From: Verrucomicrobiia bacterium
Lineage (GTDB): Bacteria > Verrucomicrobiota > Verrucomicrobiia > Limisphaerales > Palsa-1400
DNA: 64,000 bases
Direction of reading: 5' to 3'
NCBI GenBank assembly: GCA_036501665.1
Contig: DASXZW010000104.1
Span: forward strand, 12,902-76,901
The position numbers and the translations under genes are program-made. Below, piece after piece: positions 7,508 to 15,566 of this stretch (positions are counted from its first letter, which is position 1; each line of letters opens with the position of its first letter). The notes under the pieces are model-generated. The model was not told where the DNA came from. It worked only from the letters and a program-made list of their open reading frames with translations, and made no database searches.

Positions 7508-8698
7508 ATGCGCGTGCGGGTGATTTGGCTCGTCGTATCGATTGTTTTCAACGTGTTCCTCGGGGTGTGTCTTTATGTCGCCACGGAACCGTTGCATGAG
7601 GAGTTGCCTCCCGAGTCCCCCGGCTACGTTGGCACCGTCACCAGGACGAACGTCGTCGTTCGCCACGAAAATTTCACATGGGAACAAGTCACCTCCACCA
7701 ATTACCTCGAATTTGTAAAAAATCTCCGCGCCATCGGCTGTCCCGAGCAGACGGTTCGCGACATTGTCACTTCCGAGATCAACCGCGTCTATGCCCGGCG
7801 ACGCGTGATGGATGTCGTTTATCCCAATTATCAATGGTGGCGCTCCGAACCCGATCCTGAGCTAGTCCAGACGGCAAACAACAAAATCCAGGCCATCGAA
7901 GCCGAGCGCCGAAACGTGCTGACTTCGATTCTTGGCACAGGTTGGGACAACGAAAACAAAGCGCTCGTTGCAGCGCGCGCCGGCATCACCTTGACCGGCC
8001 CCGTGCTCGGCGATTTGTCCGCCGCGGTGAAAGAAGCTGTGTACATCCTCATCGCGCAAGGCCAGGAAAAAATCGAATCCTACCAGGAAGAACAAGCCCG
8101 CCAGGGCAAAGCCGTCGATCCCATGGAAATGGCGCGGCTGCGCGAGGAGCCGTTTGTTTCGCTCGTCAGGATTCTTCAACCGCCGGAATACGATGAATTT
8201 GTCCTTCGCTATTCGCCCGCCGCCCAGCAATTGCGCGACGAACTGCGCTCGGTCGAATTGAACCCCGATCAATTCCGCGGCGTGTTCAATGCCGTCGGAG
8301 CCATCATGGGCCAGCCGGTTTACTATTACGCGGGCGAAGACACCCAAATGCTCCTGCAACAAAAACAATTGCAGGCCCAAAGCCAGTCACTCATAAAAAC
8401 CGCCCTCGGCCCGGCAATCTACAACGCCTACCTGCTGAATCTCGACCCGCTCTATCGCGCCTCGCGGCAGACAGTCGAACAATTGGGCGTCCCCGCTGCA
8501 AATATTTCGCCCCTCTACGAAATCAACCGCGCAACACAGGCGGAGATGAATCGAATTCGCAACGACGCCACCTTGAGCAACGACGAAAAAGTCGAAGCGC
8601 TCGCCCAAACCCAGGTCCAGCAACAACAATCCTTGGAGCAACTCCTCGGCGCAGCCGCCTTTCAGAAATGGCTCCAATCCCAAGCCCAGTCAAAATGA
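7508..8698 (+). CDS. Hypothetical membrane-anchored protein, helical, Gln-rich C-terminus
   Basis: 396-aa ORF starting at an ATG. N-terminal TM segment MRVRVIWLVVSIVFNVFLGVCLYV. Composition looks coding, and I recognise no family. Confidence 0.6.
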   Translation: MRVRVIWLVVSIVFNVFLGVCLYVATEPLHEELPPESPGYVGTVTRTNVVVRHENFTWEQVTSTNYLEFVKNLRAIGCPEQTVRDIVTSEINRVYARRRVMDVVYPNYQWWRSEPDPELVQTANNKIQAIEAERRNVLTSILGTGWDNENKALVAARAGITLTGPVLGDLSAAVKEAVYILIAQGQEKIESYQEEQARQGKAVDPMEMARLREEPFVSLVRILQPPEYDEFVLRYSPAAQQLRDELRSVELNPDQFRGVFNAVGAIMGQPVYYYAGEDTQMLLQQKQLQAQSQSLIKTALGPAIYNAYLLNLDPLYRASRQTVEQLGVPAANISPLYEINRATQAEMNRIRNDATLSNDEKVEALAQTQVQQQQSLEQLLGAAAFQKWLQSQAQSK

Positions 8699-8703
8699 CC
8701 CCT

Positions 8704-8728
8704 GGTAGGGCGTCGGTGCCCTGACGCC
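8704..8728 (+). repeat. REP-like element, variant (GGTAGGG + short palindrome GGCGTC..GACGCC)
   Basis: ggtagggcgtcggtgccctgacgcc sits directly after the stop of the 7508..8698 gene. It shares the 5' GGTAGGG with the 28-mer family at 23203, 47637 and 51754. Confidence 0.5.
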
Positions 8729-9032
8729 ACTGAATTCTCCCTCCCCTCCGATTTGTGTCAATATTAAGGACTGACACCGGTCTGACGTGACGCTTACTAA
8801 AAACTTCCATACCTATTTTAATGAATTCTGGATGAGTTTAGGAACTCTGCTCAATATGGAGCCGTAGTCATGCCGTCATAACGAAATTGGGCGCTAGACC
8901 GGGATGAGGTTGGCAAAGTTGTAAGAGGACGCCCCGAGGTTGATCGAGGACAGTACAGGAAATGGAATTGCAACATTTGTTTAGGCCACCAATCGTTGAG
9001 AATAAGATAGAAAAGAGCTTAAAAAAGCGCAA

Positions 9033-10196: not shown

Positions 10197-10225
10197 CCCT
10201 CTCCTCCACAATGTGGAGGAGAGGG
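10197..10225. repeat. Palindromic element CCCTCTCCTCCACA-A-TGTGGAGGAGAGGG
   Basis: 14-bp perfect arms read directly. It is embedded in purine/pyrimidine-skewed sequence (ggccggggagaggagg). Confidence 0.5.
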
Positions 10226-10249
10226 CCGGGGAGAGGAGGCACCATCTAC

Positions 10250-10275
10250 GGTAGGGCGGTGCTGCGTCGCCGCCC
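10250..10275 (+). repeat. REP-like element, variant (GGTAGGG + GGGCGG..CCGCCC hairpin)
   Basis: ggtagggcggtgctgcgtcgccgccc, starting 25 nt after the previous palindrome ends, with the same 5' GGTAGGG. Confidence 0.45.
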
Positions 10276-10427
10276 ACTTTTTTCGATGGAGTTACTGGAC
10301 AAATTAACCAAATACCACACTTATGCAGAGAATCGTCCCGACGTTATGATGTGCCCGAGCCGAGCAGATTGTCATGCGACGTTTATTAACGTGAAATTAT
10401 TCCGAACCCTAAATAACCTGTCCGCAG

Positions 10428-10514
10428 ATGATCCAAAAACGTCTGGGCGATTTATCGCCGCTCCAATGGAAATCCGGCTTCGCAGCGTGGATGGGCTGGT
10501 TTTTTGACGTATAA
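10428..10514 (+). pseudogene. Truncated pseudo-copy of an MFS transporter 5' end (28 codons), broken at the inverted-repeat/rayT junction
   Basis: It translates to [28 protein letters not shown], versus [30 protein letters not shown] of the intact MFS at 14319. By hand count, 71/82 nt are identical over the coding part. Upstream homology also exists (10367.. vs 14181..). Homology stops at 10509, exactly where the 26-bp repeat begins. Confidence 0.65.
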
Positions 10515-11548
10515 GGGGTCAGAACATAGTATTCATGCATATTGCTTGACATAGAGGCTGGGCATCGGGCAGGTTGCGCGGCAGAAATGGCCAGAAAGCT
10601 TCGAGTGCAGTATCCGGGGGCGATCTATCATGTGCTCAGTCGCGGGGATCGCCGGGAGGCCATTTTCAAGGACGACACCGACCGGGAGATGTTTTTGCAG
10701 ACGCTCGAGCAAGCCTGCGAAAAGGCCGGTTGGCAGGTTCATGCGTGGGTTTTGATGTCCAATCACTTTCATCTGGTCATTGAGACGCCCGGGGGCAACC
10801 TTGTGGCGGGAATGAAGTGGCTCCTGGGGACCTATACGTCGCGGTTCAATCGCCGGCACAAGGAGTTTGGCCACTTATTCAGCGGTCGATATAAGGCGCT
10901 CATCGTGGACGGCAGCGGCGATGGCTATCTCAAAACCGTGTGCGATTACGTGCATTTGAACGCGGCACGAGCCGGTTTGCTGGGGCCCCGGCAACGGCTG
11001 GCGAGTTATCGCTGGAGCAGCCTGGGCCAATATTTATCCCAGCCCGGCCGCCGGCCAAGGTGGTTGCGTGTGGACCGGTTGCTGGGAGAATGGAGAATTC
11101 CCAAAGACAGTCCGGCGGGACGCCGAATGCTGGGCGAGCAAATGGAACGGCGGCGATGGGAGGGAATGAGCCAGGAGTTCAAGCCCATCGAGCGGGGCTG
11201 GTGTTTGGGCGGAGAAGAGTTCAAGCGCGAGCTCCTGGAGCAAGTCAGCCGCCGGGCAGGGCCAGGGCATAAGGAGCCGGAAGTGCGTGAGGCGGCTGAA
11301 GCCAAGGCGCAGCGGCTGGCGCAAGAGGGATTGGCGCGGCTGGGCTGGGGCGAGGCGGAGTTGGAAGCGCGGCGCAAAGGCGACCCGGCAAAGGTGGATC
11401 TGGCGGCCGAGTTAAGGCGGCAGACGACCATGACCCTAAGATGGATCGCCCAGCGGCTGCGGATGGGGACGACCGGCCACTTGGCGCATCTGCTGTATTG
11501 GAAAGAACGAAATGAAAAACAATAAATACTATCTTCTGACCCCTTTAT
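10511..11548 (+). mobile_element. RayT/IS200-like HUH transposase unit bounded by inverted 26-28-bp repeats (REPtron-like)
   Basis: Left end: ATAAGGGGTCAGAACATAGTATTCAT (10511-10536). Right end: AATAAATACTATCTTCTGACCCCTTTAT (11521-11548), whose reverse complement is ATAAAGGGGTCAGAAGATAGTATTTATT. The two ends enclose a single Y1-transposase-like gene. Confidence 0.6.
10587..11525 (+). CDS. rayT: REP-associated tyrosine (Y1/HUH) transposase-like protein, IS200/RayT family, with C-terminal HTH-like tail
   Basis: The track ORF starts at the TTG at 10542; the ATG at 10587 gives MARKLRVQYPGAIYHVLSRGDRREAIF. HUH motif in WVLMSNHFHLVIETP. Tyr motif CDYVHLNAARAGL matches the YxHxNP-type of COG1943 proteins. 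The C-terminal RQTTMTLRWIAQRLRMGTTGHLAHLL resembles a DnaA-C-like HTH (recalled). Confidence 0.85.
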   Translation: MARKLRVQYPGAIYHVLSRGDRREAIFKDDTDREMFLQTLEQACEKAGWQVHAWVLMSNHFHLVIETPGGNLVAGMKWLLGTYTSRFNRRHKEFGHLFSGRYKALIVDGSGDGYLKTVCDYVHLNAARAGLLGPRQRLASYRWSSLGQYLSQPGRRPRWLRVDRLLGEWRIPKDSPAGRRMLGEQMERRRWEGMSQEFKPIERGWCLGGEEFKRELLEQVSRRAGPGHKEPEVREAAEAKAQRLAQEGLARLGWGEAELEARRKGDPAKVDLAAELRRQTTMTLRWIAQRLRMGTTGHLAHLLYWKERNEKQ

Positions 11549-11565
11549 GTGCATTGGCTCCCAAT

Positions 11566-12120
11566 ATGTCGCCTATTTATGGGCCTGGGGCCAGTGGATA
11601 CAGCTTTCCCAATTATTCGGTCACCTTTATTCGTAATTCTGTGACGGGCAATGCATTTGGAGCAGTCAATGACGCTCAAAGCCTTCAGGGGCCATACTCC
11701 CTCAATTTCTCCGGAAACTCGCTCTCGTTATTTTTGCCAACTTCAGACCCAGCCACCAACGCATTCAATTGTTCGTCAGCGTTGGTCTGGGGCTGCCAGA
11801 ATTTAAACTTTTCTGGGAACACCATGCCCAGCGGCGGAACAGGAATTATTTTTTGGGGAAGTTGTTCCAACTCAGTGATTCTGGACAATAATTTCAGCGG
11901 TTTAACGCGCATGGGTGTATTGGATGGGGGAGCGGGACCAGAGACCGCTGAGCAGATGATTGGAAACATTCTGGGCTGTGGGTATAGCTACCATCTGAAG
12001 TCGATTTTCCAGGAGGGGCCGAATTGGTTTTTGTACAACAATCAGTATTTGGATGCGCATTCCAACTACGTGCCGCCATTTACGGACGCGGCGAGTCTGT
12101 GGGCGCACATTTCACCATGA
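11566..12120 (+). CDS. Probable N-terminally truncated right-handed beta-helix-like protein fragment
   Basis: The track ORF 11512..12120 begins inside the rayT 3' end and repeat. The first ATG after the repeat is 11566. There is no signal peptide. Periodic NxxFSGN motifs (LNFSGNSL, LNFSGNTM, LDNNFSGL) suggest parallel beta-helix turns. ATGA overlap with the next gene. Confidence 0.4.
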   Translation: MSPIYGPGASGYSFPNYSVTFIRNSVTGNAFGAVNDAQSLQGPYSLNFSGNSLSLFLPTSDPATNAFNCSSALVWGCQNLNFSGNTMPSGGTGIIFWGSCSNSVILDNNFSGLTRMGVLDGGAGPETAEQMIGNILGCGYSYHLKSIFQEGPNWFLYNNQYLDAHSNYVPPFTDAASLWAHISP

Positions 12121-13875: not shown

Positions 13876-13923
13876 CGTAAAGGGGTCACGTAAAGGGGTC
13901 ATAAAGGGGTCATAAAGGGGTCA
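13876..13923 (+). repeat. Tandem array, 4 copies of (CG)TAAAGGGGTCA
   Basis: cgtaaaggggtca cgtaaaggggtca taaaggggtca taaaggggtca. The last unit is the start of the third copy of the 28-bp rayT-flanking repeat. Confidence 0.75.
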
Positions 13924-13979
13924 GAACATAGTATTTATTATTTTTCATTTCATTCCTTCCAATACAGCAAATGCGCCAA
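13912..13979 (-). mobile_element. Third copy of the 28-bp repeat plus remnant of a second rayT 3' end (inverted relative to 11481..11548)
   Basis: The reverse complement of 13912..13979 aligns with 11481..11548 (TTGGCGCATCTGCTGTATTGGAAAGAACGAAATGAAAAACAATAAATACTATCTTCTGACCCCTTTAT) with about 6 mismatches in 68. The remnant encodes LAHLLYWKE*. Confidence 0.65.
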
Positions 13980-14128: not shown

Positions 14129-14318
14129 GCTTGTTCTTCAATAAGAAAATCGCCGCAGGGTCAAGGCACCCATCTCAAACGAATGGTCATCGGGACTTAT
14201 TGACGTGAAATTCTTCTGAACCCTATACTGTCAAACTCTCGATGAATCCCGACGACGATCAGACGTGGCACAGACGAAATTCGCCTGAAGTGAGCAGCTT
14301 CGGAATAACCACCTGTCC

Positions 14319-15566
14319 ATGACCCAAAAACGTCTCAGCGACCTGTCATCGCTCCAATGGAAATCCGGCATCGCCGCGTGGATGGGCTGGTTTTTCGACG
14401 GGCTGGACATTCATCTTTACACGCTGGTCGCCGCCCCGTTCGTGGCGCATTTGCTCAACGTCGCCAATCCCGGGGATCCGCTCGTAAAAAAATACAGTTC
14501 GTGGATACAGGCTTCGTTTCTCATCGGCTGGGCGGTCGGCGGCGGATTTTTTGGGCGGCTCGGAGATCGCATTGGACGCAGTCGCGCGTTGGGCCTGACC
14601 ATTCTGACTTACGCCGCCTTCACGGGGCTTTCCGTCTTTGCGCAAACCTGGTGGCAGTTATTGATCTTTCGATTTGTGTCCGCGCTTGGAATCGGCGGCG
14701 AATGGGCCGTCGGCGCCTGCCTGCTTTCAGAAACGTGGCCGAGACGCTGGGGCCCGTGGATTGCGGCGGTGCTGCAATGCGGGGTCAATGTCGGAATCCT
14801 CTGCGCGTGCCTCTTCAATTACGCATTGGCGGCGTATCCGGCGAAGTATCTTTTCCTCGTCGGAATTATTCCCGCGCTGATCGTCTTCTGGATTCGCAAG
14901 CACGTCCCCGAACCCGACGAATGGCGCGCCGCCCAAAAATCCTCAGTGGCCAAACCCTCCATCGGTGAGTTATTCCGTGGCGACCAGGCCCGCATCACCC
15001 TCCTGACAACAATTGTTTGTTCTCTGACGCTGACTGGCTGGTGGGCATTCTTATTTTGGAACCCCCAACATCTGCAAAGCCTCCCCGAACTCGCCTCCTG
15101 GGCTCCCGCCGCAAAACGGCAATTGGTGACGAAGTCGTTTTTCCTCGTCATTTTTGTGTCGATGGCAGGGAATTATTTCTTTTCATGGCTCGCCACATTT
15201 TTCGGCTACCGCCGCGTCATCCTCGGAGGCTCCCTGGCCTTCGCCGCGTCGTTTTACTTGACATACCACACCCCGCGCGGCCACGAGACGCTAATGGTTC
15301 TGTTGCCCGTAATCGGCTTCTGTTCAGGAATCTTCGGTTTATTCACAATGTACCTGCCGCCGCTATTCCCCACCTTGCTCCGCACCACAGGAGCCGGCTT
15401 CTGTTTCAACATCGGCCGCATCGCCGCCGCCATCGGCACAGTCGTTTTCGGCCTCTACCTCCAAATCGGCGATTTCCGCCCAGCCTTGATGTCCATCGGC
15501 GCGCTATTTGTGCTCGCCGCCATCGTCTCAATTTTCCTCCCGGAGGAAAATCCTGATATCTCTTAG
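14319..15566 (+). CDS. MFS transporter
   Basis: 415 aa with about 12 hydrophobic segments. The MFS loop motif [11 protein letters not shown] lies between TM2 and TM3. Confidence 0.85.

Follow-up and report, generated by a model that had tools for sequence, protein, structure and literature searches.

The gene and its flanking repeats

The 64,000-nucleotide (nt) stretch of Verrucomicrobiia contig DASXZW010000104.1 analysed here, called the window, contains at 10511-11547/8 a unit made up of a gene for a 312-residue Y1 HUH protein and two inverted repeats, one on either side of the gene (Table 1). The original prediction, made from the letters of the window, described a rayT-like gene bracketed by inverted repeats and offered two identities for the unit, an atypical REPtron or an element with terminal inverted repeats (TIRs) built around a Y1 enzyme. 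The bracketing is real. A repeat finder returned arms of 24 nt at 10513-10536 and 11522-11545 that are 92% complementary and 985 nt apart; the arms as a whole are 24-28 nt long and share the core AAGGGGTCAG. When the 19-mer core was searched for with up to 3 mismatches, the window held 3 copies against 0.02 expected, and 0 of 100 shuffled sequences reached 3. The octamer GGGGTCAG, which fits GGGGWSAS exactly, lies at 10515-10522 and, as its reverse complement, at 11536-11543. Within the element the G+C content is locally 58-66%, compared with 45-52% in the flanks.

The arms differ in length by 1 nt, the left having AAGGGG and the right AAAGGGG. Read out to 11548, the right repeat (11521-11548) is AATAAATACTATCTTCTGACCCCTTTAT. 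The family consensus, in which TAAA is followed by GGGG, places the element ends at 10511 and 11547, so that the predicted left end stands and the predicted right end, 11548, is one base too far out. The TAA stop codon at 11523-11525 lies inside the right repeat, an overlap that had also been predicted. When the single arms of the window copy were folded as single-stranded DNA, on either strand, no hairpin potential was found relative to shuffled sequences (z -0.8 to +0.7), and the window arms contain no GTAG, in line with the original description of repeats that are not obviously palindromic and lack GTAG. Because the single arms do not fold, they are TIRs and not REP hairpins. To score arms, a position weight matrix (PWM) was built from those of relatives; its top score across 20 shuffles was 11.8.

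Table 1. Features of the window and miniatures of related loci. Positions are those of the window, or of the related locus where an L number is given.
Feature	Position	Strand	Sequence, score or basis
Left TIR	10511-10536	+	ATAAGGGGTCAGAACATAGTATTCAT; core GGGGTCAG at 10515-10522; PWM score 23.7
TTGACA, -35-like hexamer facing the gene	10546-10551	+	sequence; putative promoter role
Coding sequence (CDS), 312 residues	10587-11525 (ATG to TAA)	+	Pfam Y1_Tnp, family alignment, AlphaFold models, Foldseek
Right TIR	11521-11547	-	reverse complement TAAAGGGGTCAGAAGATAGTATTTATT; PWM score 17.6
Left flank, outside the element: partial, diverged duplicate of the first ~80 nt (~27 codons) of the MFS gene at 14319-15566 and of the region upstream of that gene	10326-10510	+	
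Third copy of the cognate repeat	13908-13935	+	ATAAAGGGGTCAGAACATAGTATTTATT; PWM score 26.1; same orientation as the left arm
Remnant, last ~40 nt of a paralogous TIRYT CDS	13936-13975	-	reverse complement of ...TTGGCGCATTTGCTGTATTGGAAGGAATGAAATGAAAAATAA; alignment with 11480-11548
Four tandem copies of the terminal 11-13-nt unit (CG)TAAAGGGGTCA	13876-13923	+	leads into the repeat at 13908-13935
Solo TIR-like site of another subtype	8749-8782	-	GGTGTCAGTCCTTAATATTGACAC; PWM score 25.7; aligns with the left ends of L084, L062 and L038
92-bp miniature	L059 1265-1356 and 2435-2526; L065 5303-5394		three sites in one metagenome-assembled genome
102-106-bp miniature	L056 5005-5106, 8683-8788 and 9392-9497		three sites in another metagenome-assembled genome
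Miniature with the first 14 codons of the gene	L077 3403-3529		

The encoded protein has the fold and the motifs of a Y1 HUH nuclease. We take the ATG at 10587 as the start because all homologues begin MARKLRVQYPGAIYHV; the TTG at 10542, which had been listed, is not the start. The two motifs named in the original prediction, NHFHLV (HUH) and DYVHLNAARAGL (Tyr), are present in the 312-residue product. In its N-terminal nuclease domain NHFH occupies residues 59-62, the HUH pair being His60 and His62, and is followed by a catalytic-type Tyr121 and by WSS at 143-145. All of these residues are invariant or nearly so in an alignment of 23 homologues (W143 and S145 are invariant, S144 nearly), and among 22 aligned relatives identity is 64-80% over the full length. 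In the family the Tyr motif is YVHLNP; in the window copy Pro126 is replaced by Ala, giving YVHLNA. Pfam Y1_Tnp (PF01797, 'Transposase IS200 like') matched the protein with E 1.4e-13. The best-scoring NCBIfam model was the RayT model NF047646 (REP_Tyr_transpos), with 54.9 bits under a cutoff of 80 bits, and the NCBIfam IS200 model NF033573 gave 22.8 bits under a cutoff of 55 bits. The full-length AlphaFold model had a mean predicted local distance difference test score (pLDDT) of 74. With Foldseek, the best Protein Data Bank (PDB) match of the N-terminal domain was 4ER8_A, E. coli RayT bound to a REP hairpin (E 2.9e-6, TM(target) 0.77), and the next matches were the TnpA structures of ISDra2, IS608 and IS200.

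A linker at about 196-235 was poorly predicted, and beyond it a five-helix domain resembling a helix-turn-helix (HTH), at about 231-311, reached a pLDDT of 87.6 when modelled alone. The only Foldseek matches of this C-terminal domain with TM above 0.6 were to DnaA domain IV (1j1v_A and 8btg_A, TMq 0.61-0.63, E 7-9), and 'DnaA-IV-like HTH' is a lead from modelling, not a result.

Repeats in related loci

Of the 8,000 candidates scored in a protein search, 7,886 reached E <= 1e-5. Identity to the query is 64-100% for the best 120 that were listed, in nearly every case across at least 95% of the query length. A scan of GTDB genomes gave at least 596 loci, of which the best 80 are almost all in metagenome-assembled genomes (MAGs) of Verrucomicrobiota. 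For the repeat analysis 84 loci were examined, namely the 80 from the GTDB scan, three found by exact-protein look-up, and the window. The core GG(G/T)GTCRG was found to the left of the gene in 80 of the 84 and in inverted orientation downstream in 70; both arms were present in 68. The left core lies a median of 53 nt from the ATG, and the right core starts a median of 18 nt beyond the stop codon, which means that the right arm usually begins at or just after the stop codon; in some copies, the window copy included, it overlaps the stop. This pairing of arms at fixed distances across the family is not due to chance.

Both arms follow the consensus aAAGGGGTCAGTtC.TagTATTGaca, in which the family box is GGGGTCRG, and information content falls to zero just outside TAAA. 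Position +6 and positions +9 to +14 are variable, with the major base in 43-74% of arms. At these variable positions the left arm matched the right arm of the same element in 87-97% of 69 elements, compared with 34-57% after random re-pairing. The repeats are thus family-wide and positionally fixed, and within each element the variable inner part of one arm co-varies with that of the other. A distant relative has the same arrangement: in a gene on a Legionella adelaidensis plasmid, 39% identical to the window gene over residues 1-222, a 26-nt inverted repeat containing GAGGGTCAGG stands on both sides, with the right arm over the stop codon. The Legionella protein has sub-threshold matches to Bac_DnaA_C, HTH_38 and HTH_23, and hhalign found no match between its C-terminus and the C-terminal domain of the window protein.

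At the ends of about a dozen elements the outermost 11-13 nt (TAAAGGGGTCR) are tandemly iterated, 2-7 or more times. Examples are L010, L011 (5687-5800, at least 7 units of 18 nt), L034, L037, L076 and L082. The period of the iteration is about one helical turn. The iterated units could be extra binding sites or the scars of aberrant cleavage and joining.

The left arm also carries a putative promoter element. In most relatives TTGACA forms the inner end of this arm; in the window the hexamer is displaced by about 13-19 extra nt. Of 69 elements, 40 have the hexamer in the left arm and 10 have it in the right; right arms typically carry a mutated form (TTGTCA, TTGGCA or TTAACA), as though selection acted against an antisense promoter. 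Counted from TTGAC, the start codon lies 35-36 nt away in 58 of 80 loci, with no Shine-Dalgarno-like sequence, and 41 nt away in the window. The constant spacing and the missing Shine-Dalgarno sequence suggest that the mRNA of the family may be leaderless.

Mobility and the nature of the unit

In relatives, multiple near-identical copies of the complete unit, bounded precisely by T(A/G)AAGGGG...CCCCTTTA, stand in unrelated flanks. The MAG MFD05512.bin.2.55 has 7 copies with 91-99.3% nucleotide identity; the sequence common to them starts TGAAGGGGTCAG and ends CTGACCCCTTTA, and their flanks are unrelated (about 50% identity). Other MAGs have 2-4 copies that are 59-95% identical. Since most relatives are MAGs, these counts are minima, and assembly may account for some of the duplicates, for example L007 and L008. 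When the PWM was run over 948 kb of related loci, 173 arms were associated with a gene and 34 were solo. Among the solo arms were seven pairs that form two-arm miniatures of 92-127 bp in three MAGs, similar to miniature inverted-repeat transposable elements. The miniature at L077 was derived by internal deletion, as indicated by the codons that it keeps. No target-site duplication was detectable at any plausible offset of the ends, and the lengths of flanking direct repeats were those expected by chance. A CG preference adjoins each element end. A 2-bp duplication of CG was considered and ruled out, as CG was present on both sides of 5 of 76 elements compared with 5.7 expected.

Copies are often 1-3 kb apart or adjacent (L004 2568-4969, L005 4001-6989, L009 4111-6909, L064 6001-7753, L073 3371-6927), sometimes beside other transposase genes (IS91 Y2, DDE). 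Such clustering points to local hopping, to hot spots of insertion or to nested decay. In one MAG, L007 and L008 have an identical left flank, and their right flanks, in an RHS/YD-repeat gene, differ by 44 nt that start exactly at the end of the element; the difference reflects either a deletion next to the element or a variant of the assembly at contig ends.

Previous work described RAYT-like genes flanked by long TIRs and named the units TIRtrons and the enzymes TIRYTs; many TIRs share GGGGWSAS, and some genomes have single, dimeric or grouped TIRs, moderately abundant in places (Di Nocera, De Gregorio & Rocco 2013, BMC Genomics 14:522; PMC3733652). We consider it probable that the unit at 10511-11547 is a TIRtron, that is, a 1.04-kb element like an insertion sequence (IS) whose sole gene is a TIRYT, a RayT-related Y1 HUH nuclease with an HTH-like C-terminal domain. 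The ends of the element are TIRs of about 26 bp, 5'-TAAAGGGGTCRG...(variable)...TATTGACA. Of the two identities offered in the original prediction, the TIR-bearing Y1 element is upheld and the REPtron is not, as REP hairpins are absent, the protein falls short of the cutoff of the RayT model, and the 64 kb hold no dispersed cognate repeats. The unit shares with the TIRtrons of the 2013 paper an HUH/Tyr gene, TIRs that are not REPs and stand at fixed distances, one arm over the 3' end of the gene, and GGGGWSAS. It differs in belonging to a Verrucomicrobiota clade with its own C-terminal domain, in its high copy number in some MAGs and in the iteration of the terminal 11-mer. The TIRYT genes named in the text of that paper are from Acidobacteria and Proteobacteria. 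As for cognate TIRs away from the gene, the window has one attached to a remnant and one solo site of another subtype, and the relatives have the 34 solo arms, the seven two-arm miniatures included. The unit thus adds a member, from a Verrucomicrobiota clade, to a kind of element that is already described but little studied and mechanistically unexplored.

After the 2013 naming, TIRYTs were classified in 2017-2018 (PMC5581495; PMC6006769). In the later of these studies, 20 of 26 TIRYTs fell in TnpA_Y1 subclass 2.1, which is RAYT Group 1 of Bertels, Gallie & Rainey 2017 (Quentin, Siguier, Chandler & Fichant 2018; PMC6006769). Subclass 2.1 is marked by NHVH or NH[YF]H, by YIELNP or Y[IV]HLNP, by W[EQ] or FQ, and by an SS tail after the Tyr; its members have a C-terminal HTH (like Bac_DnaA_C, HTH_23 or HTH_28) and no REP (PMC6006769). 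The reported median length for the subclass or group is 238 residues, and the reported mean is 1.9 copies at 49% identity. Among the true RAYT groups, Group 1 resembled ISs most closely, with near-identical duplicates at 6.3% (Bertels et al. 2017, PMC5581495). The element mostly fits subclass 2.1: it has NHFH, YVHLN(P/A), the SS as WSS, a long C-terminal extension predicted to be HTH-like, and no REP nearby. In contrast to the subclass, its protein has 312 residues, and intragenomic copies in relatives reach at least 7 in number and 99% in identity.

How the enzyme would act on such ends can be sketched. The enzyme would recognise the arms, and its HTH-like C-terminal domain would be the likely part to read the GGGGTCRG box as a duplex. 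This duplex could be ordinary double-stranded DNA, or it could be a stem in single-stranded DNA, made by pairing of the left and right arms of one strand along the lines proposed for REPINs; a stem of this kind would reconcile inverted ends with a nuclease specific for single strands. The HUH/Tyr centre would then nick at the outer boundary and form a 5'-phosphotyrosine link, and the unit would move without target duplication, like the Y1 elements of the IS200/IS605 family. Because the left arm carries the -35 box, binding of the enzyme there would occlude the box and repress transcription of its own gene. We also put forward, tentatively and as a claim that could well fail, that the Verrucomicrobiota TIRtrons are autonomous and currently active ISs with non-autonomous miniatures, and that they make up a distinct IS family with an undescribed mechanism, in which a duplex-reading HTH docks a Y1 HUH nuclease on inverted ends, possibly on a stem of paired arms, with no target duplication. 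To our knowledge, Verrucomicrobiota TIRtrons are not catalogued as an IS family.

Several points weigh against the TIRtron reading or parts of it. The window has one intact copy, and the arms of this copy are imperfect, so that the copy may be inactive. Repeat counts for the source genome cover the 64-kb window of a 198-kb contig. At the position of the W[EQ]/FQ motif the window protein, and the clade throughout, reads FS (GHLFSGRYK), a one-residue departure from subclass 2.1; the Legionella relative reads FQ there. The C-terminal domain had no Pfam match when eight C-terminal segments were searched at E <= 10, the Bac_DnaA_C, HTH_23 and HTH_28 profiles among those that missed it, and it had none by PDB sequence profiles and nothing significant by Foldseek. 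Enzyme binding, the cleavage site and the strand cut are all inferred, and a Y1 enzyme acting on inverted ends cannot reuse the same-strand chemistry of IS608 unchanged, so a further step is needed. Finally, no experiment on any TIRYT was found in the literature searched, where the term itself is scarcely used.

The unit might instead be a domesticated, immobile RayT-like gene, a single-copy host gene at least in the source genome, with the repeats serving as autoregulatory operator or terminator sites. We regard this as unlikely. The single intact copy in 64 kb would suit such a gene, as would a left arm that overlaps or abuts the -35 box, a protein so unusually conserved among its aligned relatives, and the mostly housekeeping-like nature of RAYT groups, with 1.3-1.8 copies per replicon (PMC5581495); for the window copy taken by itself, single, intact and imperfect in its arms, the explanation has some force. 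For the family, however, a domesticated gene is contradicted by the seven near-identical copies in unrelated flanks in one MAG and by the two-arm miniatures at several sites. The remnants of two more elements in the window also count against it. A truncated gene fragment, the diverged 5' part of an MFS gene, abuts the left end, and another, with a weak beta-helix-like match, apparently abuts the right end; an operator, moreover, has no need of a matching copy past the stop codon.

Very unlikely, too, is a REPtron, in which the flanking repeats would be a dispersed high-copy REP/REPIN family spread by the enzyme while the gene itself stayed static. The whole gene-bearing unit is multi-copy in relatives, the gene-associated arms there far outnumber the solo sites, and all three cognate repeats in the 64 kb are tied to the gene or to a gene remnant. 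Resemblances to E. coli RayT/TnpA_REP and its REPtrons do exist: the catalytic domain has the 4ER8 fold, which is the closest solved one, the cognate repeats are inverted around the gene, REP_Tyr_transpos is the top NCBIfam model, and the two-arm miniatures in relatives resemble REPINs, and moderately abundant TIR families in some genomes are reported in the 2013 paper. Here, in contrast, the RayT score stays under its cutoff, the arms are not palindromic hairpins and lack GTAG, the protein has an extra C-terminal domain, and it is the gene-bearing unit itself that multiplies. That the unit is an ordinary IS of the IS200/IS605 family in which the inverted repeats are incidental is scarcely credible. 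Such elements (IS608, ISDra2) have asymmetric subterminal hairpins on one strand and no TIRs, a transposase of about 150 residues with Y..NQ, and often tnpB. The window unit has a protein of twice that length with an added C-terminal domain, YVHLN(P/A) in place of Y..NQ, no subterminal hairpins, a sub-cutoff score with the IS200 model, and inverted repeats that are conserved and co-varying throughout the family. What it has in common with them is the PF01797 match, the presence of IS200, IS608 and ISDra2 TnpA among its fold matches, its small size, the Y1 HUH chemistry expected of it and the lack of a target-site duplication.

The TIRtron reading bears on annotation, in that neither RayT nor IS200 transposase is the right name for the gene. 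The relatives also make a question directly approachable, namely how a Y1 HUH nuclease specific for single strands handles inverted ends that are not hairpins. The elements of the relatives show clean IS-like behaviour, with sharp ends at the repeats, at least seven near-identical copies in one genome, miniatures and no duplication, and with more than 7,800 family proteins from one search the clade is well populated for such study.

Remnants and rearrangements around the window copy

The window copy has an intact reading frame and looks old, given the 2 mismatches and the indel between its arms and the extra bases between the left arm and the -35 hexamer. Its surroundings are rearranged: a truncated gene adjoins it on one side and apparently on the other too, and remnants of two further elements lie close by; the 8.7-14 kb part of the window is a patch of element remnants and truncated genes. 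On the left, 10326-10510 is about 80% identical to 14140-14400 with a 77-nt gap, and the similarity is cut exactly at the left repeat. It stops at ...TTTGACG|T, where the intact MFS gene continues as ...TTCGACG|GGCTGG. The partial duplicate looks like an element-associated rearrangement. The intact MFS gene itself lies 3.8 kb downstream, just past the remnant of the second element. On the right, an open reading frame (ORF) at 11551-12120 gave a weak beta-helix-like NosD match (E 0.0049, 16.8 bits, under the 23.6-bit cutoff). Its only start codon is inside the right end of the element. Because there is none outside the element, we take this ORF for part of a gene, probably the 3' part of one that was interrupted or cut short at the right repeat. 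This ORF overlaps the start of an SBBP beta-propeller gene at 12024/12129-13622. An unoccupied site in a related genome was not found: when the protein of the neighbouring MFS gene was looked up by exact match, the source contig (JGI 3300036780 Ga0376652_0000094) was the sole result. In metagenome contigs the 21-mer AAGGGGTCAGAASATAGTATT had 2 matches, neither on the source contig and neither beside a homologous gene.

The third repeat copy runs into the 3' end of a paralogous CDS and is therefore the right arm of a second element, which lies on the minus strand and is mostly deleted; the 3'-end remnant of this element spans 13908-13975. A composite transposon bounded by the repeats at 10511 and 13908 is ruled out, as both have the same orientation. 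No gene remnant was recognisable behind the solo site at 8749-8782, where the alignment was unconvincing. The TTGACA of this site is intact and points antisense into the 3' end of a 396-residue ORF at 7508-8698. The 9-mer GTAGGGCGG was considered as the core of a dispersed REP in the window and is ruled out, as it occurs at chance level. Three short motifs lie 50-300 nt from the TIR sites, at 10197-10225, 10249-10276 and 8703-8730; one of them is a perfect 14+14 palindrome, CCCTCTCCTCCACA/TGTGGAGGAGAGGG, and the other two, GGTAGGGCGGTGCTGCGTCGCCGCCC and GGTAGGGCGTCGGTGCCCTGACGCC, are GTAG-tagged and hairpin-like.

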